Assembly (NCBI GenBank): GCA_029267755.1
Contig: JAJUHS010000001.1
Location: 1-58,089 of the forward strand
DNA length: 58,089 bases
Origin: Clostridiales bacterium
GTDB lineage: Bacteria > Bacillota > Clostridia > Oscillospirales > Oscillospiraceae
Direction of reading: 5' to 3'
Positions 7,079 to 39,218 of this stretch are shown piece by piece; position 1 is the first letter of the stretch; every line of letters begins with the position of its first letter. The notes under the pieces were generated by a model. The model saw nothing but the letters and a program-made list of their open reading frames with translations, was not told the DNA's origin and did no database searches. The position numbers and the translations under genes were made by a program.

Positions 7079-7165
7079 GCCGGTGTGATGGAATTGGCAG
7101 ACGTGCTGGACTCAAAATCCAGTGGTAGCGATACCGTACCGGTTCGACCCCGGTCACCGGCACCA
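7079..7165 (+). tRNA. tRNA-Leu (anticodon CAA), class II with long variable arm, CCA encoded
   Basis: Acceptor GCCGGTG/CACCGGC. Anticodon stem CTGGA/TCCAG with loop CTCAAAA. Long variable arm. T-arm ACCGG-TTCGACC-CCGGT. Discriminator A followed by CCA. Confidence 0.9.
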
Positions 7166-23157: not shown

Positions 23158-24723
23158 ATGCCCGGCCTGCAGTATCTGCTCAACCTGCTCGGAGATAATG
23201 TTACAGATTCCAGGATAATCGTACCCGTTCCTCTGTCCGACAAAATTGAAATCTTGGATGATCAGGACTACCTCTGTGCCGACACAGTATATATCGCGCC
23301 CTCGGTGACGGCAGATCTGTTTCTGCGTAAGGAACCTGTCATTGAAGACGGCGCGCTTTTAATAACTTCCGATACGGATTCGCTTCTCAACGATGAGCTT
23401 GTTTCGAGATTCCCCATCAATCTGATTCAGACGCGGATGAAGTCCGCCGCTTTATATAACCTGCTGAGCAGGATGTTCAGGAAAATAGAAGCATGGGAAA
23501 GAAATTTTGAGCGCTTATCCCGACCCGGCGCAAATGTCCGGGAAATTCTGCAATATATCGCAGATGAATCCGGGGCGTCGGTCTACCTTATCGAGGACGA
23601 AAGATACACCTCCGTCAGCCGAAACGAACGCATTTCGGCATGGCTTGCATCAAACTTTTTCAGAAACGGAGTTCTGAACGAGAAGTGGATAGCGGAATTC
23701 AAAAATGCCTGCACCCCGTGCGGCGGCTTCCTTAGGCATTATTCCGACAAAATGGGAATCGCTGTTTATTTCAGGCAGATTCAAAACCGCGGCGGCTTGG
23801 GCCTTTACATTGTTCTCGCCTATGAAAACTCCGGAAACCTTGACCATGCGTTCGGCAAGCTAGCCGTGGACACCATCTCAGCCAAGCTTAGTTCCGGAAC
23901 CGACCCCGCCCTGCTCGAAGATTCCTCTGCTTTCGGAAAATTCTGGCAGGACATCTTAAGCAAAAAGTATATCGGCAAAACTGAAATCTATGACCAGCTC
24001 AACAAGTTTCGGAATTCTCCTCTGCTTTTCGTGCGTGTGATTCTTATTGTCTTCGAAAACAAGGAATGGGACGATGCGGCATGCTGGAAGATTATATGCC
24101 AGCTGAACGAGCTTTTTCCCGGCTGCACCATTACCTTCGGCGGCGGCGAGGCCGTCATACTAATGTATCACAACGAAAGGATATTAAACCTCAAACTGGA
24201 CGAGCCCAAAATAAATGCGTTCCTGATGAAATACGACGCCTATATGGCCGTAGGCAACAATACCCGCGACTATTCCATGCTGCGCACTCATTACCTTCTC
24301 TCTAAGCGCACCATATCTCTCGCAAAAAAGCTTAATGTCGAAAAAGAGAGCAGAATATGCCGTCAGATAAGATATAATGAATACTGCATAATCGATTTCT
24401 GCGTCGAGCGGTTTGTTGAGGAGTTCGGCCACGACGACATCATCTATCTCATGCACCCCGCGGTCGTCCAAATCTTAAGATACGATAAAAAGTACAACAA
24501 TAATCTCGAGGATGTGCTACATTCCTATCTTATCAACGACTGCAACGTTACAAGAACCGCGGAAGAAATGTATATGCACCGCAATACTATAATAAATAAG
24601 ATTAACAAGATCATGTCGCTTATAGATGCGGATCTGAGCGACCCTAGAGTCCGCCAGCAGCTTCTGTTCTCTCAGCAGGTGCTTCGGTACTATGAAAAGG
24701 TTATGAATCTTGAAGTCAACTAG
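23158..24723 (+). CDS. PucR/CdaR-family transcriptional regulator
   Basis: C-terminal HTH region LHSYLINDCNVTRTAEEMYMHRNTIINKINKI is typical of PucR C-terminal domains. RBS GGAAGGAG. Confidence 0.7.
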   Translation: MPGLQYLLNLLGDNVTDSRIIVPVPLSDKIEILDDQDYLCADTVYIAPSVTADLFLRKEPVIEDGALLITSDTDSLLNDELVSRFPINLIQTRMKSAALYNLLSRMFRKIEAWERNFERLSRPGANVREILQYIADESGASVYLIEDERYTSVSRNERISAWLASNFFRNGVLNEKWIAEFKNACTPCGGFLRHYSDKMGIAVYFRQIQNRGGLGLYIVLAYENSGNLDHAFGKLAVDTISAKLSSGTDPALLEDSSAFGKFWQDILSKKYIGKTEIYDQLNKFRNSPLLFVRVILIVFENKEWDDAACWKIICQLNELFPGCTITFGGGEAVILMYHNERILNLKLDEPKINAFLMKYDAYMAVGNNTRDYSMLRTHYLLSKRTISLAKKLNVEKESRICRQIRYNEYCIIDFCVERFVEEFGHDDIIYLMHPAVVQILRYDKKYNNNLEDVLHSYLINDCNVTRTAEEMYMHRNTIINKINKIMSLIDADLSDPRVRQQLLFSQQVLRYYEKVMNLEVN

Positions 24724-25376: not shown

Positions 25377-25401
25377 AAATATTTTATATGAGGTGATTTT
25401 T

Positions 25402-27435
25402 ATGAAAAGGATGAAAAAAGCACTCGGACTTCTGCTGCTTATAGCGGCGATCATGGCACTTTTCGCGGTAACGGCGTATGCGGTCGAAGCCCCCTCCCCG
25501 GCTGATCCGACGGGAGCAAGCTACAGTACGCTGACCGGAGAAGAAACCCTCGGCGACGTCGCGGCTATCGCAGATACGGCAAAAAGCAGCGCGACCTACG
25601 TCTGGGTAATGATCTGCGCATTTATGGTTTTCTTCTTCCAGTGCGGGTTTGCAATGGTTGAGACCGGTTTTTGCCGCGGTAAGAACGCAGCTCATACCAT
25701 GACAATGAACTTTATGGTCTTTCTGGTCGGAGCCATAGGCTACTTCCTCGTCGGCTTTGCACTTCAGTTCGGCGGCTCAGGCGGCGCGGCGACACTCGGT
25801 TCCGGCGGTGCGGTGCTCGACGCAATGGTTTCAATCCCCGGCTTTGGCGGCATTCTGGGATACAAGGGCTTTATGCTTGGCGGTACTTATGATGCAGGCG
25901 TGTACCTCCTTTTCTTCTTCCAGATGGTGTTTATGGACACGACCGTTACGATTCCCACAGGCTCAATGGCAGAAAGAGTAAAGTACTCTGCCGTCATTAT
26001 CGCTTCGTTCTTTATATCCATGTTCTTCTATCCGCTTTTCGGTAACTGGGTATGGGGCGGCGGCTGGCTCTCGACTCTCGGCAAGAACTTCGGCCTCGGC
26101 CACGGCGTTGTTGACTTCGCGGGCTCGGCGGTTGTTCACTCGATGGGCGGTATGCTGGCCCTCTCCGGCGCAATAGTCATAGGCCCAAGAATCGGCAAAT
26201 TTAAAAAGGACGGCACTGCCAGGGCTTTCCCCGGGCACGACATCCCGATGGCGATTGTAGGTACGATAATCCTCTTTTTCTGCTGGTTTGCGTTTAACGC
26301 AGGGTCCACTCTGAACGCTTCCGACTTCCGTCTCGCGGTAGTCGCTACCAACACAATGATTGCGGGAGCAACAGGCGGTCTCGTCGCAATGTTCTATATG
26401 TGGATCAAGTACGGCAAGCCCGATCCTTCGATGACAGCGAACGGCGCTCTCGCCGGACTCGTCGCCATTACCGCTCCCTGTGCGTTCGTAAATGCTTTTT
26501 CTTCCCTTGTCATCGGCTTTATAGCGGCTATACTTGTTTGCATTTCGGTTCCCTTCGTCGAAAACAGGCTAAAGCTTGACGACCCTGTCGGCGCCATTTC
26601 GGTTCATGGAGTTAACGGTATCTGGGGTGTAATTTCCGTAGGTCTTTTTGCTGACGGCGTTTACGGCGACGGGCTCAACGGCGTACCGGGCGGCGTAACC
26701 GGCCTCTTCTTCGGCGGCGGCGCTTCACAGTTAATCGCACAGCTAATTGCGGTAGGCGTTCTCATAGTTTACGGCTTTGGCGTATCCTATATTTTCTATA
26801 AGGCGCTCGACAAGGTCTGGGGTCTTAGGGTTAAGCCGGAGGATGAGCTTGAAGGTCTCGATATCCCCGAGATGGGTGTTCTCGCATACCCTGACAGCCA
26901 ACTCGTCCGTTCGGAGCTTGACTATAACTCTTCAGACAACGCCCCTATAAGACAGCTTGAAAGATTCGGTAGCTGGACGAAAAAGGCTCTGCCCACGGCT
27001 CCCGCAAGCGTCAGCGCGGCGGTTCCCGTCGAACTTGTCGCAGGAGCCGCCCCCATTGCTTCCGACGTTAAGATTACGAAAATCGAGATCATTACAAAGC
27101 AGAGCAAGTTTGAGGCCTTAAAGGCAGCCATGAATGAAATCGGCGTGACCGGAATGACCGTGACCAATGTGCTCGGCTGCGGCATACAGAAGGGAAAAAC
27201 CGAATATTACCGAGGCGTTGAGGTTGAAATAAACCTCCTGCCCAAGGTGCAGGTCGAAATCGTCGTATCCAAGGTTCCCGTCAGAACCGTAATTGAAACC
27301 GCGAAAAAGGTTCTATATACCGGCCATATCGGCGACGGAAAGATCTTCGTTTACGACGTCGAGAATGTTGTCAAGGTTCGTACCGGTGAGGAAGGATATG
27401 CGGCCTTACAGGACGAATCGGATCTGGAAGCCTGA
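25402..27435 (+). CDS. amt: Ammonium transporter (Amt) fused to a C-terminal PII (GlnB/GlnK-like) domain
   Basis: Amt body (FQCGFAMVETGF, DFAGSAVVHSMGG, ISVHGVNGIWG). A linker of about 90 aa follows. The PII domain from 27070 reads KIEIITKQSKFEALKAAMNEIGVTGMTVTNVLGCGIQKGKTEYYRGVE...GDGKIFVYDVE. Start set to ATG 25402, 5 nt after GAGGTGA; the ORF-track start 25393 is a GTG inside that RBS. Confidence 0.9.
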   Translation: MKRMKKALGLLLLIAAIMALFAVTAYAVEAPSPADPTGASYSTLTGEETLGDVAAIADTAKSSATYVWVMICAFMVFFFQCGFAMVETGFCRGKNAAHTMTMNFMVFLVGAIGYFLVGFALQFGGSGGAATLGSGGAVLDAMVSIPGFGGILGYKGFMLGGTYDAGVYLLFFFQMVFMDTTVTIPTGSMAERVKYSAVIIASFFISMFFYPLFGNWVWGGGWLSTLGKNFGLGHGVVDFAGSAVVHSMGGMLALSGAIVIGPRIGKFKKDGTARAFPGHDIPMAIVGTIILFFCWFAFNAGSTLNASDFRLAVVATNTMIAGATGGLVAMFYMWIKYGKPDPSMTANGALAGLVAITAPCAFVNAFSSLVIGFIAAILVCISVPFVENRLKLDDPVGAISVHGVNGIWGVISVGLFADGVYGDGLNGVPGGVTGLFFGGGASQLIAQLIAVGVLIVYGFGVSYIFYKALDKVWGLRVKPEDELEGLDIPEMGVLAYPDSQLVRSELDYNSSDNAPIRQLERFGSWTKKALPTAPASVSAAVPVELVAGAAPIASDVKITKIEIITKQSKFEALKAAMNEIGVTGMTVTNVLGCGIQKGKTEYYRGVEVEINLLPKVQVEIVVSKVPVRTVIETAKKVLYTGHIGDGKIFVYDVENVVKVRTGEEGYAALQDESDLEA

Positions 27436-27565: not shown

Positions 27566-27594
27566 TTGACAGCGCCAAATGCATATGCTATCAT
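27566..27594 (+). promoter_or_regulatory. Sigma-A promoter of the BCAA operon leader
   Basis: TTGACA (27566-27571), 17-nt spacer, TATCAT (27589-27594) preceded by TGc (extended -10 type). Confidence 0.6.
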
Positions 27595-27630
27595 GAATCC
27601 AATTTATAGTATCTGAAAGGAAATCCTTCA

Positions 27631-27726
27631 ATGCTGTTGTCTGTTGTATCCATTATTATACTTAGCGTTATTCTTGGCATTCTTGTCATTGATAACGCTG
27701 GTTTTGGTTGCATACAGGCAGGTTGA
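27631..27726 (+). CDS. Candidate Ile/Leu/Val-rich leader peptide 1 (31 aa)
   Basis: My own translation: MLLSVVSIIILSVILGILVIDNAGFGCIQAG*. 16 of 31 residues are I/L/V. RBS GAAAGGAAA 7 nt upstream. Not in the ORF track because it is under 60 aa. Confidence 0.6.
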   Translation: MLLSVVSIIILSVILGILVIDNAGFGCIQAG

Positions 27727-27744
27727 TTGAATATCAGGATAATC

Positions 27745-27785
27745 AAAAGCCTTGTAGTGTAACCGCTGCAAGGCTTTATGTTTTA
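27745..27785 (+). terminator. Attenuator terminator 1
   Basis: AAAGCCTTGTAG pairs with CTGCAAGGCTTT (12 bp, one G:U) around an 8-nt loop, followed by ATGTTTTAT. Confidence 0.6.
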
Positions 27786-27820
27786 TATAGGAGTTCTGAA
27801 AAATGTTTAAGAGGATCCGC

Positions 27821-27928
27821 ATGGAAGGCATAATTATAATTCTTGTACTCGTTATCGTACTTATTATCGATAGCGTTGGTTCGGTTTTGCCTGATAGCGG
27901 AAGCTGCTTGAAAACCCAAACGGTTTAA
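27821..27928 (+). CDS. Candidate Ile/Leu/Val-rich leader peptide 2 (35 aa, or 41 aa from ATG 27803)
   Basis: MEGIIIILVLVIVLIIDSVGSVLPDSGSCLKTQTV* has 13 consecutive I/L/V codons. RBS AAGAGGA 6 nt upstream of ATG 27821. The in-frame ATG 27803 (MFKRIR...) follows TAGGAG. Confidence 0.55.
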   Translation: MEGIIIILVLVIVLIIDSVGSVLPDSGSCLKTQTV

Positions 27929-27934
27929 GTAAGC

Positions 27935-27973
27935 GGGGCCTAAGGTGAAACCACCTTAGGCCCCTAGTTGTTT
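27935..27973 (+). terminator. Attenuator terminator 2
   Basis: Perfect 13-bp stem GGGGCCTAAGGTG (27935-27947) / CACCTTAGGCCCC (27952-27964) with a 4-nt loop. The tail TAGTTGTTT is weak. Confidence 0.55.
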
Positions 27974-28001
27974 AATACGAATTGTTGAGGAGGATACTAC
28001 T

Positions 28002-29531
28002 ATGAACGACCGAGTTAAAATTTTCGACACGACCTTGCGGGACGGCGAGCAATCGCCCGGGTGCAGCATGAATTTAAGGGAAAAGCTGGATGTTGCGCGT
28101 CGCCTTGAGCTTCTGAAGGTCGATGTTATAGAGGCGGGCTTCGCAGCCTCCTCACCCGGAGATTTTGAAGCCGTAAAAGCCGTGGCCGATAGGATAAGAG
28201 GCTGCACGGTCGCGTCGCTGGCCAGATGCAACAGGGTCGACATAGACGCAGCTTTCGAAGCTATCAGGAACGCCGCCGACCCGCGCATCCACGTTTTCCT
28301 TGCCACCTCTCCTGTCCATATGCAGTATAAACTGCGCATGACGCAGGAGCAGGTTCTTGAAGCAATAGCGGAGATGGTTAAATACGCAAAGAGCAAGTGC
28401 TCCAACATCGAGTTCTCGGCCGAGGACGCAATGCGCTCCGAGCCCGAATTTCTCGCAAAAGCCGTCGAAGCAGCGATTAATGCCGGCGCGAACGTAGTGA
28501 ATATTCCCGATACCGTCGGCTACGCCACCCCATCGGAAATGCGTGAAATGATTGAGTATCTGCGCAATACCGTTCCCGGCTGCAATGATATCGAGCTTTC
28601 GGTCCACTGCCACAACGACCTTGGCATGGCGACGGCGAACTCGCTCGCCGGCGTCCTCGGCGGAGCGAGACAGGTAGAGTGCACCATAAACGGGATCGGA
28701 GAAAGGGCTGGCAACGCTTCCCTGGAGGAGGTTGTGATGGCCATCAACACCCGTAAGGAGCTTTACGGAGTTTCGACCAATATCGATACCACGAAAATCT
28801 ATAAGACCAGCATGCTCGTCTACAATATAATCGGCAGAACCGCGCCGATGAACAAACCCATTGTAGGAACAAACGCCTTCGCGCACGAGGCCGGAATCCA
28901 CCAGCACGGCGTTTTGGCGAACAGAAGCACCTATGAAATAATGACTCCCGAATCTGTCGGCATAAAGGTGAACCAGATGGTGCTCGGAAAGCATTCCGGC
29001 AAGCATGCCTTTGAAGCAAGGCTTATCGAGCTTGGCTTCGAACTTAGCCCCGAGGAGCTTGAAAGCTGCTTTGCGGAGTTTAAAAAGCTGAGCGACAAGA
29101 AAAAGGAAATTTCGGACAGCGATCTTGAGGCGCTAGCGCGCAATAGAACGCCCGCCGACAAGGAGGAGGGCTTCGTCCTGGAACGCTTCACGGTGCAGGC
29201 CGGCAACATGACCTCCGCAACCTCGGTGGTAGTTCTGAAAAAGAACGGCGAGCTTTTCGAGGACGTCGCGCTGGGCGACGGCCCGGTAGACGCAGCCTTT
29301 AAGGCAGTGGACAAAATCATGGTGCCTCCCGAGCATAGCTTTGAAACCTATTCGACGCATTCTGTCTCCGAAGGCAAGGATACTCTGGGAGAGGTTGTGG
29401 TAACGCTCAGGAAGAGCGACAGGCTCTTTGTCGGCAAAGGCCTCTCCACGGATACGATTGAAGCGAGCATACTTGCGTATATTGCGGCTCTTAACAAGCT
29501 TATTAAATTCTCCCAACCTGTATTGAATTAG
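28002..29531 (+). CDS. leuA: 2-isopropylmalate synthase
   Basis: IFDTTLRDGEQSPG, HCHNDLGMATANS and a C-terminal LeuA regulatory domain. RBS GAGGAGG. Confidence 0.93.
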   Translation: MNDRVKIFDTTLRDGEQSPGCSMNLREKLDVARRLELLKVDVIEAGFAASSPGDFEAVKAVADRIRGCTVASLARCNRVDIDAAFEAIRNAADPRIHVFLATSPVHMQYKLRMTQEQVLEAIAEMVKYAKSKCSNIEFSAEDAMRSEPEFLAKAVEAAINAGANVVNIPDTVGYATPSEMREMIEYLRNTVPGCNDIELSVHCHNDLGMATANSLAGVLGGARQVECTINGIGERAGNASLEEVVMAINTRKELYGVSTNIDTTKIYKTSMLVYNIIGRTAPMNKPIVGTNAFAHEAGIHQHGVLANRSTYEIMTPESVGIKVNQMVLGKHSGKHAFEARLIELGFELSPEELESCFAEFKKLSDKKKEISDSDLEALARNRTPADKEEGFVLERFTVQAGNMTSATSVVVLKKNGELFEDVALGDGPVDAAFKAVDKIMVPPEHSFETYSTHSVSEGKDTLGEVVVTLRKSDRLFVGKGLSTDTIEASILAYIAALNKLIKFSQPVLN

Positions 29532-29568
29532 GGGTGAACAGTATGAAACAATTTCAGGCTTTAATTGA

Positions 29569-29680
29569 TTCAAGTGCGTTTTTATCGCCGCTTTTGCTGC
29601 AACCGAAAAGCATGCACATTATGGCCATTCCTCTTCATGGTCGTTTTGTGCCCAGAACGATGCGAAAGGAATGGTCATAA
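29569..29680 (+). repeat. Copy A of the intergenic element plus a structured leuA-ilvB spacer
   Basis: TTCAAGTGCGTTTTTATCGCCGCTTTTGCTGCAACCGAAAAGCATGCACATTATGGCC aligns with copy B. The distal block GATGCGAAAGGAATGGTCATAA is also shared with copy B. CCATTCCT (29625-29632) can pair with AGGAATGG (29667-29674), which is the ilvB SD. Confidence 0.5.
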
Positions 29681-31342
29681 ATGACAGGCGCGCAAATAAT
29701 CATAGAAACACTAATTGAGCAGGGCATAGATACCGTTTTCGGTTATCCCGGCGGCGCGGTTCTGAATATTTATGACGAGCTTTACAAGGCGAGCGGCAGG
29801 ATACGCCACTTTATCACCTGCCACGAGCAGGGTGCCGCACATGCGGCTGACGGCTTTGCCAGGAGCACCGGTAAAACCGGAGTTGTAATTGCGACCTCGG
29901 GTCCGGGAGCCACGAATCTTGTGACAGGCATCGCGACGGCGTATCTTGACTCCTCCCCGCTTGTTGCGATCACCGGAAACGTCGGTCAGTCGCTCATCGG
30001 AAAGGATAGCTTCCAGGAAGTCGATATTACCGGCATAACGATGCCTATAACCAAGCACAACTATATCGTCAAGGATGTCGAAAAGCTCGCAGACATTATC
30101 AGGGAAGCGATAACGATAGCCAGCGTCGGCCGTCCCGGCCCTGTGCTGATAGACGTTCCGAAGGACATTCAGACCGCAAAATGCGAGTTCGTCCCGAAGG
30201 GCAAAGCGCCTCCTTCCGGCGCCGCGGAGATTTCGGACGAAGCTGTTAAGTCGGCTATAGAACTGATTGGCCAGTCGAAAAAGCCTTATATCTACGCAGG
30301 CGGTGGAGTGGTTATAGCGGACGCCTCCAAGGAGCTTTTGGAATTTGCGGATAAAATCGACGCCCCTATCGGACTCAGCATGATGGGTCTTTCGGCTGTT
30401 CCGGGCGATCACCCCAGAAATCTCGGAATGTCGGGCATGCACGGCAGATATGCCGCCTCCAAGATGCTGTTCGAGTCGGATCTTATCGTTGCGGTAGGAA
30501 CAAGGTTTTCAGACAGGGCCACCGGCTGCAAGATCAGCTTCTCCAGAGGCCGCAAGATACTGCACATCGATATCGACCCGGCCGAGATCGGCAAAAACAT
30601 ACCGGCTTACGTTTCGGTTATCGGAGATGTCAAGGCGGTTCTCAAAAAGCTTAATTTGCAGCTTGAAAAGACATCGCGCCCCGATTGGAAGTCCGAAATA
30701 GACGCCGTAAAATACAGCCCGGAAAACGAAATTCCGAGTTCCGGAAACGCGCTCCCGCCGCAGTATGTCATTGAAAGCGTGCGAAGCTTTATGAAGGACG
30801 ACGAGATCGCCGTTACCGACGTCGGACAACACCAAATGTGGGCCAGCCAGTTTTACAGGCTGGGAAACCCGAGGACCTTCATTACCTCCGGCGGGCTCGG
30901 CACGATGGGCTTCGGCATGGGGGCCGCGATAGGCGCCTGCATAGCCAATGGCAAAAAGCGTACCGTGCTCTTCACCGGCGACGGAAGCTTCCACATGAAC
31001 CTGAACGAGCTTGCGACCGCCGTAACAAACAATCTTCCGCTTATTATAGTCGTAATGAACAACAGCGTTCTCGGCATGGTAAGGCAGTGGCAGACAATAT
31101 TCTTCGACAGGCGCTACTCCAATACGACGCTTCAGCGAAAAACCGATTTTGTCAGGCTCGCCGAGGCGTTCGGAGCAGGCGGATACCGCGCCGAGAGCAA
31201 GGAAGCCTTCGACGCGGCGCTACGGAAAGCTTTTGATACCGATGGTCCCGTACTGATCGAAGCCGTCATAGACAGCGACGAGAAGGTGCTGCCGATGATC
31301 CCTCCCGGCGGCACAATAGACGATATTATTTTAAGGGGGTAG
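29681..31342 (+). CDS. ilvB: Acetolactate synthase large subunit (biosynthetic type)
   Basis: ThDP enzyme motifs (GYPGGAVL, GGLGTMGFGMGAAIG, GDGSFHMN). 553 aa. Confidence 0.93.
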   Translation: MTGAQIIIETLIEQGIDTVFGYPGGAVLNIYDELYKASGRIRHFITCHEQGAAHAADGFARSTGKTGVVIATSGPGATNLVTGIATAYLDSSPLVAITGNVGQSLIGKDSFQEVDITGITMPITKHNYIVKDVEKLADIIREAITIASVGRPGPVLIDVPKDIQTAKCEFVPKGKAPPSGAAEISDEAVKSAIELIGQSKKPYIYAGGGVVIADASKELLEFADKIDAPIGLSMMGLSAVPGDHPRNLGMSGMHGRYAASKMLFESDLIVAVGTRFSDRATGCKISFSRGRKILHIDIDPAEIGKNIPAYVSVIGDVKAVLKKLNLQLEKTSRPDWKSEIDAVKYSPENEIPSSGNALPPQYVIESVRSFMKDDEIAVTDVGQHQMWASQFYRLGNPRTFITSGGLGTMGFGMGAAIGACIANGKKRTVLFTGDGSFHMNLNELATAVTNNLPLIIVVMNNSVLGMVRQWQTIFFDRRYSNTTLQRKTDFVRLAEAFGAGGYRAESKEAFDAALRKAFDTDGPVLIEAVIDSDEKVLPMIPPGGTIDDIILRG

Positions 31343-31346
31343 CAGG

Positions 31347-32860
<1,514 letters not shown>

Positions 32861-32869
32861 GGTATGCTG

Positions 32870-34534
32870 ATGAGAAGTGACAGTGTTTTAAGAGGAGTTG
32901 AACGCGCCCCGCACCGTTCGCTCTTCAAGGCCATGGGCTACACCGACGGGCAGCTGAAAAAGCCGCTGATTGGAATCGTAAACTCCTTCAACGAAATTAT
33001 TCCCGGTCATATGCACCTGAACCAGATAGCCCGGGCGGTCAAGGACGGCGTACTAGCGTCCGGCGGAACGCCGATCGAATTCAACACCATCGGAATCTGC
33101 GACGGCATTGCGATGGGCCACGAGGGCATGAAATTCTCCCTCGCAAGCCGCGAGCTTATTGCCGACAGTATTGAGTGCATGGTAATGGCGCACTGCTTTG
33201 ACGGACTTGTGTTCATCCCGAACTGTGACAAGATCATTCCCGGAATGCTGATGGCGGCGGCGAGACTGAACATCCCCTCTATTTTCGTATCGGGCGGCCC
33301 CATGCTCTCGCTCGAGGGCAAAAACGGAAAGTTCATGGATCTAAACACTGTGTTCGAGGCAGTAGGCTCCTGCAAGGCCGGCACCATGAACGAAGCGGAA
33401 CTCTCCTATTACGAGGATAACGCCTGCCCCGGCTGCGGCTCCTGTGCCGGAATGTTCACCGCGAACTCCATGAACTGCCTTTCGGAGGCGCTCGGTATGG
33501 CGCTTTCCGGAAACGGCACGATTCCTGCTGTGTATGCGTCGCGTTTAAGGCTTGCGAAAGCCGCCGGAGCACAGATAATGGATCTCGTCAGAGAAAATAT
33601 AAGGCCGCTGGATATCATGACCGAAAAGGCATTTAAAAACGCCCTTGCCGTAGACATGTCGCTAGGCTGTTCTACGAACTCTGTTCTGCACCTCACCGCG
33701 ATAGCGAACGAGGCTGGCGTCAGAATCGACCTGAGAAAGATTAACGAAATAAGCGAAAGCACGCCAAACCTCTGCAAGCTCTCCCCCGCCGGCCCTCACC
33801 ATTTGCAGGACCTTAACGCTGCGGGCGGCGTACATGCTGTTATGAGCGAGCTTCTGAAAGCGGGGCTTTTGGACGGCGCTTCGATTACCGTCACCGGCAA
33901 AACCGTCGCCGAGAACCTTTATGGAGTCCGCATACTCGATAGCAATGTAATCAGGAGCATAGATAACGCTTACTCCAAATCCGGGGGAATCGCAATTTTG
34001 TTCGGCTCCCTCGCTCCTGACGGCGCTGTCGTCAAGCGCAGCGCGGTAGCCCCGGAAATGCAGCATCACAAGGGACCGGCAAGGGTCTTTGAATCCGAGG
34101 AGCAGGCAATAAAAGCCATCTACTCGGGAGCGATTCATCCCGGCGACGTAGTCGTCATCAGGAACGAAGGCCCCGCAGGCGGCCCGGGAATGCGTGAAAT
34201 GCTGCTTCCAACCTCCGCAATTGCGGGAATGGGCCTAGACAAGGATGTCGCCCTGATTACCGACGGGCGTTTTTCCGGCGCCACAAGGGGCGCGGCTGTC
34301 GGTCACGTTTCTCCCGAAGCGCAGCGGAGCGGCCCCATTGCTTATGTCTGTGAGGGAGATACTATTGAGATTAACATCCCGGAATACCGTCTTGACCTGC
34401 TTATCAGCGACGATGAGCTTGAGCGCAGAAAAAAGACCATGGCGCTTTATCCTCAGCCGGAAAGAAAGGGCTACCTTAACCGCTATTCCAGAATGGTATC
34501 CTCTGCCGACAGAGGCGCGGTGCTGTCATACTAA
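32870..34534 (+). CDS. ilvD: Dihydroxy-acid dehydratase
   Basis: MRSDSVLRG..., [26 protein letters not shown] 32870 has 7-nt spacing from GAGG; ATG 32864 is too close to it. Confidence 0.95.
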
Positions 34535-34576
34535 AGCCAGTTTTGCCAAAAATCAAATTGAAACGAGGTGAGTAAA

Positions 34577-36160
34577 GTGAAACGACTTGAAATATTTGAT
34601 TCTATCCTGCGGGACGGCGCTCAGGGAGAGGGTATCTCGTTTTCCGTTCAGGATAAGCTAAACATTGTCCACGCACTTGATGAATTTGGAGTGGCGTATA
34701 TTGAAGCGGGAAACCCATCCTCAAACCCGAAGGATATTGAATTTTTTCAAAAGGCCTCTAAGCTGAAGCTTAAAAATGCCAAGCTCTGCGCATTCGGAAG
34801 CACAAGAAGGAAGGGAATGCGCGCCGACGAGGATGAAAACGTTCTTTCTCTGCTTAAGGCCGATACTCGCGCCGTTTCAATTTTCGGCAAAGCGTGGGAT
34901 ATCCACGCGACCGAAATTATAAAGGTCTCGCTTGAAGAAAATATTGAAATGGTAAGAGAAACCGTATCATTTTTGAAAAGCAAGGGCAAGGAGCTTATTT
35001 TCGACGCCGAGCATTTCTTTGACGGCTACAAGAATAATCCCGAATACGCGCTGACGGTGCTTAAGGCCGCCGCCGAGGGCGGCGCCGACGCGCTCTGCCT
35101 CTGCGATACGAACGGTGGGACCTTCCCGGACGAGGTTTTTGAAATCACAAAGCTCGTATGCGAAATGTACCCTAATCTTCGCATAGGCATACACTGCCAC
35201 AACGACACCGGCTGCGCGGTTGCGAATTCGCTTATGGCCGTTAAGGCGGGCGCTGTGCAGATACAGGGTACGTTTACCGGCATCGGCGAGCGCTGCGGCA
35301 ATGCGGATCTCAGCGTACTTATCGCCGACCTGCAGCTCAAAAAGGGTTATCGCTGCGTAGAGGGAGATATGAGCCGGCTTTCCGATACCGTGATAAGGAT
35401 ATCGTCAATTTCCAATCTCATTGTGCCCAAGGATAAACCGTTTACCGGCGAAAGCGCATTTGCGCACAAGGGTGGAATGCATATTGACGGGGTTTCAAAG
35501 CTTCCCAGCTCATTTGAGCACATCGACCCCGAGACTGTCGGCAACGCAAGGCGCTTTTTGATGTCCGAGGTGTCTGGAAGAACCACCATCCTTGCAAAGC
35601 TTAAGGATATCGCCCCAGAATTCACCAAGGATTCCCCTGAGGTTATTGAAATCATGAGGCGGCTGAAGCAGCAAGAGCATGAGGGCTATCAGTTCGAATC
35701 CGCCGACGCGAGCCTGGAGCTTTTCATCCTCAAGGTTTTAGGCAGATATAAGCCTCATTTTGAGCTCAATATGTATAAAACGACCGGCGAATACCCGGCG
35801 GCGAACCCCGAGCTGGCTTCATATGCGATGATAAATATTGAGGTTGACGGCGAAAATGAAACAGCGGCGTCACTTGGGAACGGCCCTGTTCATGCCCTCG
35901 ACTCCGCCCTCCGCAAGGCTCTCGTGGTTTTCTACCCGCAGCTTTTAAAGATGCGCCTTATCGATTACAAGGTCAGGGTGCTTGAGGGCAGCCACGCCAC
36001 AGCGGCACAGGTAAGGGTTCTGATCGAATCCACAGATGGCGAAACCACCTGGACCACTGTCGGAGTATCCACCGACATTATTCAGGCAAGCTGGCTGGCT
36101 CTCGCTGATTCATTTGAATACATGCTTTCAAAAACAGCGAACGAGAAAGCCAAAGTCTGA
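34577..36160 (+). CDS. cimA: (R)-citramalate synthase (LeuA paralogue, CimA type)
   Basis: [40 protein letters not shown] and a C-terminal LeuA-dimer-type domain. GTG 34577 follows GAGGTGA; GTG 34568 is also possible. The CimA versus LeuA assignment rests on the N-terminal motif pattern recalled from memory. Confidence 0.75.
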
Positions 36161-36176
36161 AATGATACGGAAATCA

Positions 36177-36266
36177 CTCAACGCGCGTTTTTCTCGCCGC
36201 TTACGCGGCGACCGAAAAAATGCACAATATTGTGCCTTAAGCAATGCGAAAGGAATGATAATAATT
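36177..36266 (+). repeat. Copy B of the intergenic element (cimA-leuC spacer)
   Basis: CTCAACGCGCGTTTTTCTCGCCGCTTACGCGGCGACCGAAAAAATGCACAATATTGTGCC followed by CAATGCGAAAGGAATGATAATAATT and ATG. Core hairpin is TCGCCGC-TTAC-GCGGCGA, flanked by T5 and A6. Confidence 0.5.
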
Positions 36267-37526
36267 ATGGGAATGACAATGTCTCAGAAAATAATCGCCG
36301 CCCACGCGGGGCGCGACAGTGTAAAAGCGGGCGAAATCGTGATGGCGAAGCTCGACATGGTGCTGGGCAACGACATCACGGCTCCCGTGGCGATCAAGGA
36401 ATTTTACAAGGCAAAGACGTCCTGCGTTTTCGATTGCGGGAAAATCGCGCTTGTAATGGATCACTTCACTCCAAACAAAGACATAAAGGCCGCAGAACAG
36501 TGCAAGGCTGTCAGGGATTTTGCAAGGGAAAAGGGCGTCGTAAACTTTTTTGATGTCGGCGAGGTCGGAGTAGAACATGCTCTGCTTCCCGAAAAAGGTC
36601 TTGTCGGCAGCGGAGACCTCATAATCGGCGCGGACTCGCACACCTGCACCTACGGCGCACTCGGCGCGTTCTCGACCGGAGTCGGCTCAACGGATATGGC
36701 ATACGCAATGGCCACCGGAACCGCCTGGTTCAAGGTTCCCACTGCGATAAAGTTCGTGCTTCGAAATAAGCCCCAAAAATGGGTATCTGGCAAGGACGTA
36801 ATTTTACACATCATCGGCAAGATAGGCGTAAACGGCGCTCAGTACAAGTCGATGGAGTTCACCGGCGACGGACTTAAGAACCTTACGATTGACGATAGGC
36901 TCTGCATGGCTAACATGGCCATCGAGGCCGGCGCGAAAAACGGCATTTTCGAGTATGATGAAATAACCGCGGCTTATGAAGCCGAGCATAGGAGTAAAAA
37001 ACCCGTTATTTACAAAGCAGACGAGGATGCGGAGTACGAAAAAGTAATCGAGATCGACCTTTCCGCTATAAAACCCACCGTTGCCTTCCCCCACCTGCCC
37101 GAGAATACAAGAACCATTGACGAGGTTGGCGAGGTGAAGATCGATCAGGTCGTTATCGGCTCCTGCACCAACGGCAGACTTGAGGACCTCGAGATCGCCG
37201 CCGGCATCCTTAAGGGCAGAAAAGTCCATAAGGACTGCCGCGTGCTGATAATCCCCGCGACGCAGAAAATCTATCTCGAGGCAATGCAAAAGGGCTATCT
37301 CGAGATTTTCATAAACTCAGGCTGCGCCGTATCGACTCCCACCTGCGGCCCTTGCCTCGGCGGACATATGGGCGTCCTGGCGAAGGGCGAAAGAGCCGTT
37401 GCGACGACAAACCGCAACTTCGTCGGACGCATGGGACATACGGAGAGCGAGGTTTACCTTGCAAGCCCCGCAATCGCGGCGGCCTCTGCTATAGCTGGTA
37501 AGATTGCTTCCCCCGAGCAGATTTAA
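36267..37526 (+). CDS. leuC: 3-isopropylmalate dehydratase large subunit
   Basis: [15 protein letters not shown]..., [21 protein letters not shown]. The ORF-track start 36036 overlaps cimA and is only read-through of an open frame. Confidence 0.93.
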
Positions 37527-37538
37527 GGAGGTGCTGTA

Positions 37539-38039
37539 ATGAACGCGAAAGGAAAAGTTATAAAATACGGCAACAACGTCGATACAGACGTAATAATCCC
37601 GGCAAGATATCTTAACACCACCGACGAGAAGGAGCTTGCCTCCCACTGCATGGAGGATCTCGACAAGACCTTCCCGAGCCGCGTTGCGGCAGGATGCACC
37701 ATTATGGTTGCGGGACAGAATTTCGGCTGCGGCTCGTCCAGGGAGCATGCCCCCCTTTCAATAAAGGCCGCTGGTATCTCTTGCGTCATAGCCGAGGATT
37801 TCGCGCGAATCTTCTTCAGAAACGCCATCAATATCGGACTTCCTATAGTTGAATCCCCAGAAGCTGCAGCTTCGATTGAGGACGGAGATAATGTAGAGGT
37901 CTACTTTGACGAGGGTATCATCAAAAATGTCACAAAGGGCAAGGAATTTAAAATTGCCCCCTTTCCCCCCTTCCTGCAAGCGATAATCTCCGCAGGCGGA
38001 CTTCTCGCCGCCGCGGAAAAAGGAAGGCTTATGCCTTAA
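37539..38039 (+). CDS. leuD: 3-isopropylmalate dehydratase small subunit
   Basis: [13 protein letters not shown] motif. 166 aa. Confidence 0.93.
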
Positions 38040-38060
38040 CGAATAGAAAGGAACAGCAAT

Positions 38061-39134
38061 ATGAACTATAAAATCGCACTTGTCAGAGGCGACGGTATCG
38101 GCCCTGAGATAATCGACTCCGCAGTTAAGGTTTTAGACCGCATAGGTAAAAAATTCGGACACCAGTTTATGTATACCGACGTGCTCGCGGGAGGCTGCGC
38201 CATCGACGCAACAGGCGAGCCGCTGCCCGAGCAGAGCGTCGAAACCTGTCTTAAGAGCGACAGCGTAATGCTCGGAGCGGTCGGCGGTCCGAAGTGGGAT
38301 ACGCTGCCGGGGCATTTACGTCCGGAGAGAGCCCTGCTTGGGCTACGAAGCGCAATGAAGCTTTACGCTAACATCCGTCCCGCGGTTCTATATGACGCGC
38401 TGGTATCAGAATGCCCGCTCAGAACAAGCATTGCCAAAGAGGGCATAGACCTTATCGTAGTGCGCGAGCTAACCGGCGGAATTTACTACGGAGAACGCGG
38501 CCGCGGCGAAGGTCCCATGGGCCGCGACGCCTTTGATACCGAGCGCTACTCCGTTACGGAAATCGAGCGTATCGGACGAATTGCTTTTGAGATGGCAATG
38601 AAGCGCCGCAAAAAACTAACAAGCATCGATAAAGCAAACGTGCTGGAAAGCTCGAGGCTCTGGCGTGAAACCATGCACGAGCTAAAAAAGGAGTATCCGG
38701 AGGTTGAATACTCCGACATGCTGGTTGACAACGCCGCGATGCAGCTTGTTCGCAGGCCATCTCAGTTTGACGTAGTCGTTACGAGTAACATGTTCGGCGA
38801 CATACTTTCTGACGAAGCCTCGATGATAACCGGCTCAATCGGGCTTCTGCCCTCCGCCTCCCTCGGCGCTTCCAAACTCGGAATGTACGAGCCGATTCAC
38901 GGCTCTGCCCCCGATATTGCCGGAAAGGGCATCGCAAACCCGATAGCGACTATACTTTCCGCCGCGATGATGCTGAGGTTCTCCTTCGATCTTGAGGCTG
39001 AAGCAAAGTGCATAGATGACGCGGTTTCCGAGGTTCTTCGCTCCGGCGCGAGGACAGCCGACATCATGGGCGACAGCAAGGCGAAAGCCCTTTCCACCGA
39101 CGAAATGACGGCTTTGATTTTAAACAGGCTATAA
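38061..39134 (+). CDS. leuB: 3-isopropylmalate dehydrogenase
   Basis: IALVRGDGIGPEI, VRELTGGIYYG, NMFGDILSDEAS, GSAPDIAGKGIANP. Confidence 0.95.
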   Translation: MNYKIALVRGDGIGPEIIDSAVKVLDRIGKKFGHQFMYTDVLAGGCAIDATGEPLPEQSVETCLKSDSVMLGAVGGPKWDTLPGHLRPERALLGLRSAMKLYANIRPAVLYDALVSECPLRTSIAKEGIDLIVVRELTGGIYYGERGRGEGPMGRDAFDTERYSVTEIERIGRIAFEMAMKRRKKLTSIDKANVLESSRLWRETMHELKKEYPEVEYSDMLVDNAAMQLVRRPSQFDVVVTSNMFGDILSDEASMITGSIGLLPSASLGASKLGMYEPIHGSAPDIAGKGIANPIATILSAAMMLRFSFDLEAEAKCIDDAVSEVLRSGARTADIMGDSKAKALSTDEMTALILNRL

Positions 39135-39172: not shown

Positions 39173-39218
39173 AAAAAAGTTGGGGTTAAAGAAATAAAAC
39201 CCCAACTTTTCTATTTTG
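39173..39218. terminator. Strong terminator ending the BCAA operon
   Basis: AAAAAAGTTGGGGTT pairs with AACCCCAACTTTT, followed by CTATTTT. Confidence 0.75.

Follow-up and report, generated by a model that had tools for sequence, protein, structure and literature searches.

How is a complete branched-chain amino acid (BCAA) pathway controlled in a member of the Clostridia when the region in front of its first gene, leuA, holds two small Ile/Leu/Val-rich (ILV-rich) reading frames, each followed by a terminator-like hairpin? The locus lies in a 58,089-nucleotide stretch of DNA from a Clostridiales bacterium (the whole stretch is referred to below as the window), and its parts follow one another 5' to 3' in the order promoter, leader 1, terminator 1, leader 2, terminator 2 and leuA. 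The leader is framed by two features:

27566–27594, + strand: promoter of the sigma-70 type, TTGACA-17-(TG)TATCAT, 11 of 12 positions matching, with an extended -10 TG.
28002–39134, + strand: regulated operon of nine genes, leuA-ilvB-ilvN-ilvC-ilvD-cimA-leuC-leuD-leuB, assigned by NCBIfam equivalog matches.

Both had been proposed in a preliminary description of this DNA, and both were borne out, the promoter by its TTGACA-17-TATCAT elements with the TG and the nine-gene BCAA operon by the equivalogs. Transcription is expected to start at about 27601. The leuA gene starts at 28002, after terminator 2 and with its own ribosome-binding site just upstream, and the operon ends at a terminator at approximately 39175–39215. 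The operon includes a gene for citramalate synthase but no ilvA, and thus accounts for all three of Ile, Leu and Val. A second promoter candidate at 27807–27834, with 9 of 12 positions matching, falls within leader ORF 2 and was judged to be due to chance, and no CodY box was found near the promoter within three mismatches. The leader RNA (27600–28001, 402 nt) folds at -142 kcal/mol, versus -97.9 +/- 5.2 kcal/mol for its dinucleotide shuffles (z -8.6). Searched against Rfam 15, the leader of the window gave no T-box, riboswitch or other family at the gathering score, in keeping with the absence of a T-box reported earlier; the best sub-threshold scores were those of Phe_leader (21 bits, gathering 55) and trpB (25 bits, gathering 59). 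The leader regions of 19 related loci likewise matched no leader family in Rfam, the two matches obtained being an unrelated sRNA and a tRNA.

The two reading frames and their ribosome-binding sites are the following:

27615–27623, + strand: ribosome-binding site of leader 1, GAAAGGAAA, of which GAAAGGA is invariant or nearly so in 13 sequences.
27631–27726, + strand: leader ORF 1, 31 codons, translation MLLSVVSIIILSVILGILVIDNAGFGCIQAG.
27789–27793, + strand: ribosome-binding site of leader 2, AGGAG, 9 nt 5' of the ATG, conserved.
27803–27928, + strand: leader ORF 2, 41 codons, translation MFKRIRMEGIIIILVLVIVLIIDSVGSVLPDSGSCLKTQTV.

Codons for Ile, Leu and Val make up 16 of the 31 in leader 1 (7 Ile, 5 Leu and 4 Val) and 19 of the 41 in leader 2, where codons 10–22 form an unbroken run of 13 such residues. 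Ranked by ILV density among the 318 ATG-initiated ORFs of 20–80 aa in the six frames of the window, the two leaders occupy the first and second places, and the run of 13 compares with a next-longest run of 5. The third most ILV-rich small ORF, at 24525–24614 on the minus strand, was set aside as a chance occurrence, antisense within a gene of 521 aa. Translation supports leader 1 exactly as it was first delimited. For leader 2, the frame and its end at 27928 stand, but the start preferred at first, 27821, does not: in L167, the closest relative, a Leu codon (TTA) stands in place of that Met, which the others lack. As it is not conserved, the start was placed at 27803, which together with its AGGAG is conserved among relatives as MF/MY/ML...

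Related loci were collected by LeuA-based scans of genomes and metagenomes, followed by a mechanical search for ILV-rich mini-ORFs. The full tandem arrangement was found in 14 distinct sequences, i.e. the window and 13 related ones, with LeuA identities to that of the window, where measured, of 68–92%; the comparison of leaders in related genomes, proposed earlier as a check, thus finds the tandem kept in 13 further sequences. The two-leader layout is present in L001, L002, L081, L083 and L161–L170, and the promoter (TTGACA and CATATGCTATCAT) is kept in L001, L002 and L161–L170. In L083 the RNA architecture is kept, but the leaders are ILV-poor. A single unit, of the leader-1 type, occurs in L003 and L082, and six loci from Oscillospiraceae metagenome-assembled genomes (MAGs) also carry a single unit. 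The tandem had been described as unusual for Clostridia, which holds for the duplication and not for its component, ILV leader peptides 5' of leuA being not rare in this part of the class.

A profile of leader 2, built from five peptides and searched against 5.8 billion proteins, recovered 11 homologues in total, all of 29–43 aa and all with a VLP motif and a run of the IIILVLVIVLII type. Gene callers had designated these homologues hypothetical proteins. In all ten contexts that were read the peptide 2 homologue stands directly 5' of leuA; in the eight that were newly read, leuA is followed by ilvB where the contig extends (that of L169 stops just before), and all eight carry leader 1 and terminator 1 upstream. 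With nhmmer, no copy of a unit was found away from the leuA leader in the window and 170 loci.

In an alignment of 13 sequences (A6, the source of the pairing figures for the terminators given below), the start codons and Shine-Dalgarno sequences of both leaders are conserved. Leader 1 falls into six length classes of 27–34 codons, with the frame kept in orthologues from 14 other loci, and leader 2 into several classes of 29–43 codons; despite the indels, the distance from the ATG to the conserved motif shifts solely by multiples of three. Within the hydrophobic runs Ile, Leu and Val replace one another, and Phe, Met and Ala are almost missing. Both mini-ORFs are presumably translated, as judged from these patterns of sequence conservation. 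The proportions of Ile, Leu and Val are similar in leader 1 and leader 2 across all homologues. A division of labour, with one leader reading Leu and the other Ile and Val, for example, was rejected on account of this similar mixture; the signals are thus not shared out between the two leaders.

Each reading frame is followed by an intrinsic terminator:

27746–27787, + strand: intrinsic terminator 1, a 14-bp stem with a GUAA loop (27746–27777) and a U-rich tail, -20.1 kcal/mol.
27935–27975, + strand: intrinsic terminator 2, a 13-bp stem with a GAAA loop (27935–27964) and the tail UAGUUGUUUAAU, -26.5 kcal/mol.

These hairpins are the two strongest terminator-like sites within 14.6 kb, and RNAalifold predicts both independently. 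The two hairpins with T-containing tails seen at the outset were confirmed, with covariation in both stems: terminator 1 is 96% paired in the 13 sequences with compensatory changes at 4 of its 14 pairs (5 of 14 in a set of six sequences), and the corresponding values for terminator 2 are 90.5% and 7 of 13. The U-tract 3' of terminator 2 is not continuous in the window (UAGUUGUUU). Just 6 nt separate the stop codon of leader 2 from this terminator, and a ribosome that paused at the stop would mask the foot of its stem.

One possible explanation of such short hydrophobic frames is that they encode functional small membrane peptides, for instance a regulator or a toxin, and that the hairpins are ordinary gene-end terminators. 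The peptides do resemble single transmembrane helices, and their homologues are annotated as hypothetical proteins. Against this, the homologues lie between the promoter and leuA in 10 of 10 contexts read, no copy occurs elsewhere in the window or the 170 loci, residues vary freely inside the I/L/V class, and those C-terminal residues that are conserved fall where the RNA has its pairing strands. Moreover, unconditional terminators placed 5' of an operon without a promoter of its own would silence it. The preliminary description had itself held that peptides conserved away from BCAA operons would be small membrane proteins instead of leaders; the homologues were seen just 5' of leuA, and we regard the membrane-peptide explanation as extremely improbable.

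A leader-peptide attenuator calls for alternative RNA pairings, and these were sought within each unit by folding and by comparison of the 13 sequences:

27637–27721, + strand: long '1:2' hairpin of unit 1, inside the ORF, predicted by folding.
About 27663–27700, + strand: conserved inner hairpin of unit 1, AGCGUUAU...AUAACGCU, 84% paired in 13 sequences and also predicted by RNAalifold.
27707–27719, + strand: putative antiterminator 5' strand of unit 1, GUUGCAUACAGGC, pairing with GCCUUGUAGUGUAAC at 27749–27763, -15 kcal/mol.
27816–27901, + strand: '1:2' hairpin of unit 2, pairing GGCAUAAU with GUUUUGCC, predicted by folding.
27850–27857 and 27868–27875, + strand: inner hairpin of unit 2, CGUUAUCG with CGAUAGCG, 80% paired in 13 sequences and also predicted by RNAalifold.
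27884–27892, + strand: putative antiterminator 5' strand of unit 2, GUUUUGCCU, pairing with AGGUGAAAC at 27943–27951.

The outer helices of the 1:2 hairpins are 65–68% paired. Each ORF holds a conserved RNA hairpin, CGUUAU...AUA(A/G)CG (RNAalifold), and ATT GAT AAC GCT and ATC GAT AGC GTT are the 3' strands of these in-ORF hairpins. The motif ID(N/S)(A/V)G common to the two peptides is what the 3' strand of this conserved hairpin encodes; the resemblance is an RNA constraint and not a peptide constraint.

The conserved elements GGUUGC in unit 1 and GGUUUUGCC in unit 2 are complementary to the top of their own terminators, and few parts of the leader vary less among the 13 sequences than the antiterminator 5' strands. 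In unit 1 the antiterminator helix is 85% paired, and its duplex is better than that of shuffled sequences (p = 0.007). In unit 2, where GUUUUGCCU sits within the near-invariant GGUUUUGCC (one position varies, G/A), the helix is 94% paired, the whole alternative fold has an energy of -20.8 kcal/mol, and the duplex reaches p = 0.043 in the window. The corresponding values in L002 and L163 are 0.003–0.010, including 0.003 for unit 2 in both, so that over the six units tested the complementarity beats shuffles at p = 0.003–0.043. Covariation in the antiterminator helices within the tandem group is limited to two pairs, as the helices are nearly invariant. Divergent relatives pair differently: in L003 the antiterminator is formed by GAUUUGCG and CGCAAAUC, and in the Oscillospiraceae by GAAAAGUCA and UGACUUUUC, in both cases taking in the terminator loop. 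The same apparent logic written in different letters is the best covariation-like support for the proposed antiterminators. A long-range pairing of GGUUGCC in unit 1 with GGUUUUGCC in unit 2, suggested by RNAalifold, was treated as probably spurious.

The alternative folds were modelled on the RNA present before the 3' arm of the terminator is made, with the bases covered by a ribosome masked. In the window, the antiterminator pairings form with the masked ribosome anywhere in the ILV run and vanish once it reaches the last ~8–12 codons. The pattern recurs in most of the 26 units of the 13 sequences: with the ribosome placed in the ILV run, 7–12 nt of the terminator arm remain sequestered, and with it in the last codons 0–5 nt do in most units, with a few higher; with no ribosome, 0–10 nt of the arm are paired, and this state differs among the homologues. 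In silico, each unit is thus predicted to possess an antiterminator that excludes the terminator, that a stalled ribosome favours and that a ribosome at the end of the ORF blocks. In a minimum-free-energy control, shuffled upstream segments sequestered the terminator arm about equally well (p ~0.1–0.3), and the proposed antiterminator helices are singled out solely by the duplex test and by conservation. Equilibrium folding of full units with the ribosome mask was dropped, the terminators always winning and the switch being left uninformed. The full-length RNA at equilibrium always retains both terminators, and the attenuation model therefore depends on co-transcriptional kinetics. That terminators win at equilibrium is usual for kinetic switches.

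Another possible explanation is that the RNA structures sense a protein, a small ligand or a tRNA instead of a translating ribosome, the ORFs being incidental. The most conserved nucleotides are indeed pairing elements (the CGUUAU hairpins, GGUUGC and GGUUUUGCC), and L083 keeps these elements while most of its ILV codons are gone. However, an incidental ORF is difficult to reconcile with the conserved start codon and Shine-Dalgarno sequence, with indels that are without exception multiples of three, and with hydrophobic runs made almost purely of I, L and V that are interchanged within the class. Nor does the RNA resemble a known sensor: nothing in Rfam matched, T-box, ppGpp and other riboswitches included, and only simple hairpins are conserved, without a complex aptamer-like fold. 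We consider direct sensing by the RNA very unlikely.

Taken together, the ILV-rich ORFs and their place before leuA, the covariation in the terminators and the conservation of the alternative pairings favour leader-peptide attenuation, as had been suggested from the start. On this sequence and folding evidence, the locus very probably comprises two complete ribosome-mediated leader-peptide transcription attenuators in series, which would sense charged Ile-, Leu- and Val-tRNA. In each unit, RNA polymerase would first produce the short ORF rich in Ile, Leu and Val codons. While charged tRNAs are plentiful, the translating ribosome would reach the end of the ORF and mask GGUUGC... in unit 1 or GGUUUUGCC in unit 2, the antiterminator strand; alternatively, this strand would stay locked in the 1:2 hairpin; in unit 1 the hairpin would also sequester it when a ribosome is absent. 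With the strand unavailable, the GC-rich terminator would form and transcription would stop. Under shortage of a branched-chain amino acid, the ribosome would stall on uncharged tRNA in the ILV run and break the 1:2 hairpin, and the freed strand could pair with the terminator loop and the distal part of the 5' arm as these emerge, allowing the polymerase to read through. Because a transcript must escape both terminators before it reaches leuA, read-through would approximate the product of two probabilities. Control of the operon would accordingly be multiplicative, and two units in series should lower basal expression and steepen the response.

As regards the origin of the tandem, profiles of the two units recognise each other in nhmmer searches: that of unit 1 matches unit-2 copies with E = 7e-5 to 0.03, and that of unit 2 matches unit-1 copies with a best E of 5.7e-8. 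The unit-1 profile also matches the single leader of the Oscillospiraceae locus L005 (E = 2e-4), a weak homology. The paralogy of the leaders proposed earlier is upheld by these cross-matches at the level of profiles, but not by the pairwise alignment of unit 1 with unit 2 of the window, which is not significant (z 1.8). Since related genomes (the Oscillospiraceae and L003) carry one unit, the tandem appears to be a lineage-specific duplication. The sequences are most simply explained by an old duplication of a single unit that would predate the split between L083 and the lineage of the window; in L003 and L082 the second unit was either lost or never acquired.

A duplication raises the further possibility that one unit alone is the working sensor, the other being either a duplicate, redundant or in decay, or a partial terminator that acts constitutively and does no more than lower expression, in which case the control would not be multiplicative. 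L003, L082 and the Oscillospiraceae relatives manage with a single unit, and the U-tract of terminator 2 is imperfect in the window, both of which would fit such a view. A decaying copy, though, should have lost features over a LeuA distance of 68–92% identity, and in the 13 sequences both units keep the start, the Shine-Dalgarno sequence, the frame, the ILV run, the antiterminator strand and a covarying terminator. A single working unit is for these reasons unlikely, and two functional attenuators remain our preferred reading.

A single unit of this kind would not be news, as leader-peptide attenuation is a textbook mechanism. The only tandem of leader peptides known to us is the pair that responds to different signals in Salmonella mgtCBR, and a doubled leader-peptide layout reading the same signal is, to our knowledge, undescribed. 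Rfam 15 has no entry for the family of leuA attenuators seen in Clostridia (Oscillospiraceae and relatives), nor was a paper describing it found. In the literature, of which subscription papers were incompletely covered and where absence is not proof, we found neither same-signal tandem leader peptides nor a leuA leader from Clostridia or Oscillospiraceae. We therefore suggest, tentatively, that this locus may represent the first example in nature of ribosome-mediated attenuators for the same signal that were duplicated and act in series, with a switch-like, product-of-two response to the charging of Ile-, Leu- and Val-tRNA.

In Bacillus subtilis, transcription outruns translation (PMC7858274). 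If the same held here, ribosome-mediated attenuation would need strong pausing of the polymerase. If, on the other hand, the proposed mechanism is true, the conservation of the tandem and the widespread single units of Oscillospiraceae imply that the leading ribosome is kept close to RNA polymerase, a coupling that contrasts with the 'runaway transcription' of B. subtilis. This bearing on ribosome-mediated attenuation in Bacillota is a motivation for experiments and not a result. The locus offers a natural and compact system in which to ask whether serial attenuators multiply and whether transcription and translation in Clostridia are coupled tightly enough for ribosome-mediated attenuation. 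On the practical side, the public-database entries that call these mini-ORFs 'hypothetical proteins' should be changed to leader peptides.

Among known systems, the enterobacterial attenuators of ilvGMEDA, ilvBN and leu, with the leader peptides ilvL, ivbL and leuL (PMC5794164), share with the present units the short ORF rich in codons for the end products, the intrinsic terminator with an antiterminator that excludes it, and multivalent sensing, in which one peptide reads Ile, Leu and Val. They differ in that each of those operons has one attenuator and in the host, which here is a Gram-positive of the class Clostridia, and they show no similarity to the leader of the window in sequence or by Rfam model. 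Closer in taxonomy are the leaders of other Firmicutes: that of Staphylococcus aureus ilvD, 26 aa long and Ile/Leu-rich, for which there is genetic evidence, and the BCAA leader peptides predicted in Lactococcus and Streptococcus (PMC5794164). These too are ribosome-mediated ilv-leu attenuators, in the same phylum and in place of the T-box of Bacillus. They are single units of unrelated sequence, however; for S. aureus, pairing of the antiterminator with the U-tract has been proposed, and the system is combined with CodY (PMC5794164), whereas the window has no CodY box. Also comparable are the single units of MAGs of Oscillospiraceae and other Clostridia (L003–L005, L008, L009, L011 and L085), which agree with the window in position and architecture, i.e. 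an ILV ORF with a CGUUAUU...AAUA(A/G)CG hairpin, a strand complementary to the terminator loop, and a terminator. The window differs from them in having two such units and in its antiterminator and terminator sequences.

The tandem itself has two counterparts. The leader of Salmonella mgtCBR, the closest precedent for a pair of short-ORF attenuators within a single leader, contains the short ORFs mgtM, which responds to ATP, and mgtP, which responds to Pro-tRNA, without intrinsic terminators, and its authors call it a singular example in which the ORFs sense different signals (PMC3641672). As in the window, two short ORFs in one leader have alternative stem-loops of their own, and mgtM and mgtP act independently; they are not duplicates, whereas the units of the window are paralogous and each has a canonical terminator. 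Because both of these units are mixed I/L/V sensors as well as paralogous, their signal would be the same, unlike that of the mgtCBR pair. The other counterpart is the tandem of T-boxes or riboswitches for the same ligand, in which each copy has its own expression platform and a more switch-like, pseudo-cooperative response is expected (PMC12452182). Here too, two complete sensor-plus-terminator units for the same signal precede one operon, and tandem T-boxes also report the charging of tRNA, as the leader units are proposed to do. The sensor of those systems is an RNA aptamer or a tRNA-binding fold, whereas in the window it would be a translating ribosome; owing to this difference in sensor type, the tandem leader attenuators would follow the same logic as tandem T-boxes without belonging to the same family.

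The operon leuA-ilvB-ilvN-ilvC-ilvD-cimA-leuC-leuD-leuB, which the two serial predicted attenuators precede, carries a gene for citramalate synthase (cimA, window 34568-36160) and lacks ilvA, so that isoleucine synthesis presumably proceeds through citramalate, with the use of LeuCD and LeuB. Such a route would be consistent with the richness in Ile of the leaders that precede this 'leu' operon. Other features of the window, and one of a related metagenome-assembled genome (MAG) locus with the tandem layout, L002, are as follows:

Window 7079-7165, + strand: tRNA-Leu (anticodon CAA), Rfam match
Window 25393-27435, + strand: ammonium transporter-P-II nitrogen-regulator fusion, 680 aa, the gene directly upstream of the leader
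Window 29532-29680: leuA-ilvB gap of 150 nt, containing an ORF of 45-48 aa that begins MKQFQALIDSSAF
L002 1317-1366, - strand: SpF59 sRNA / ldcC RNA, Rfam match (71.5 bits)

In the fusion protein, the ammonium transporter occupies residues 70-499 and the P-II domain residues 562-672. The tRNA-Leu is the sole tRNA and the sole Rfam match in the window, and the SpF59/ldcC match in L002 lies approximately 1.3 kb upstream of the leader. As leuA and ilvB are spaced by only about 10-17 nt in the relatives L161, L162 and L165, the gap with its ORF looks, on sequence comparison, like an insertion in the window.

RNAalifold paired the antiterminator strand of unit 1 (window 27706-27712, GGUUGCC) with that of unit 2 (27883-27891, GGUUUUGCC), over a span of approximately 180 nt. 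This pairing probably arises as a by-product of the near-palindromic character of two conserved motifs; if real, it would allow cross-talk between unit 1 and unit 2.

In the relative L083, the RNA architecture of two units, each with its terminator, is retained, but the leaders (1106-1204 and 1303-1392) are poor in Ile/Leu/Val (10 of 32 and 10 of 29 residues, mainly Leu), which may reflect a shift to Leu-only sensing or to another mode of control. In the relatives L003 (2900-2980) and L082, each with a single unit of the leader-1 type, two small GC hairpins without U-tails, GGGGCGAGGCCCC and GGCCGGAGGCCGG, occupy the site expected for unit 2; they may be what is left of a unit since lost, or may have no connection with one.

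A single ILV leader (...VIIVRL...NSAKSHA...) precedes leuA in Oscillospiraceae MAGs (L004 2786-2953; likewise L005, L008, L009, L011 and L085). These leaders have the CGUUAUU hairpin in common with the tandem units, and their 9-nt strand GAAAAGUCA is complementary to UGACUUUUC in the terminator loop region. They constitute an uncatalogued family of predicted attenuators.

Mini-ORFs with internal or terminal I/L/V runs were also found upstream of leuA in loci from termite-gut spirochaete and other metagenomes:

L112 1074-1175: mini-ORF with I/L/V run
L046 1975-2124: the same
L118 1195-1296: the same
L132 1200-1280: the same
L092 1288-1410: the same

The occurrence of these unrelated-looking mini-ORFs before leuA suggests that leader peptides of branched-chain amino acid operons have been invented repeatedly.
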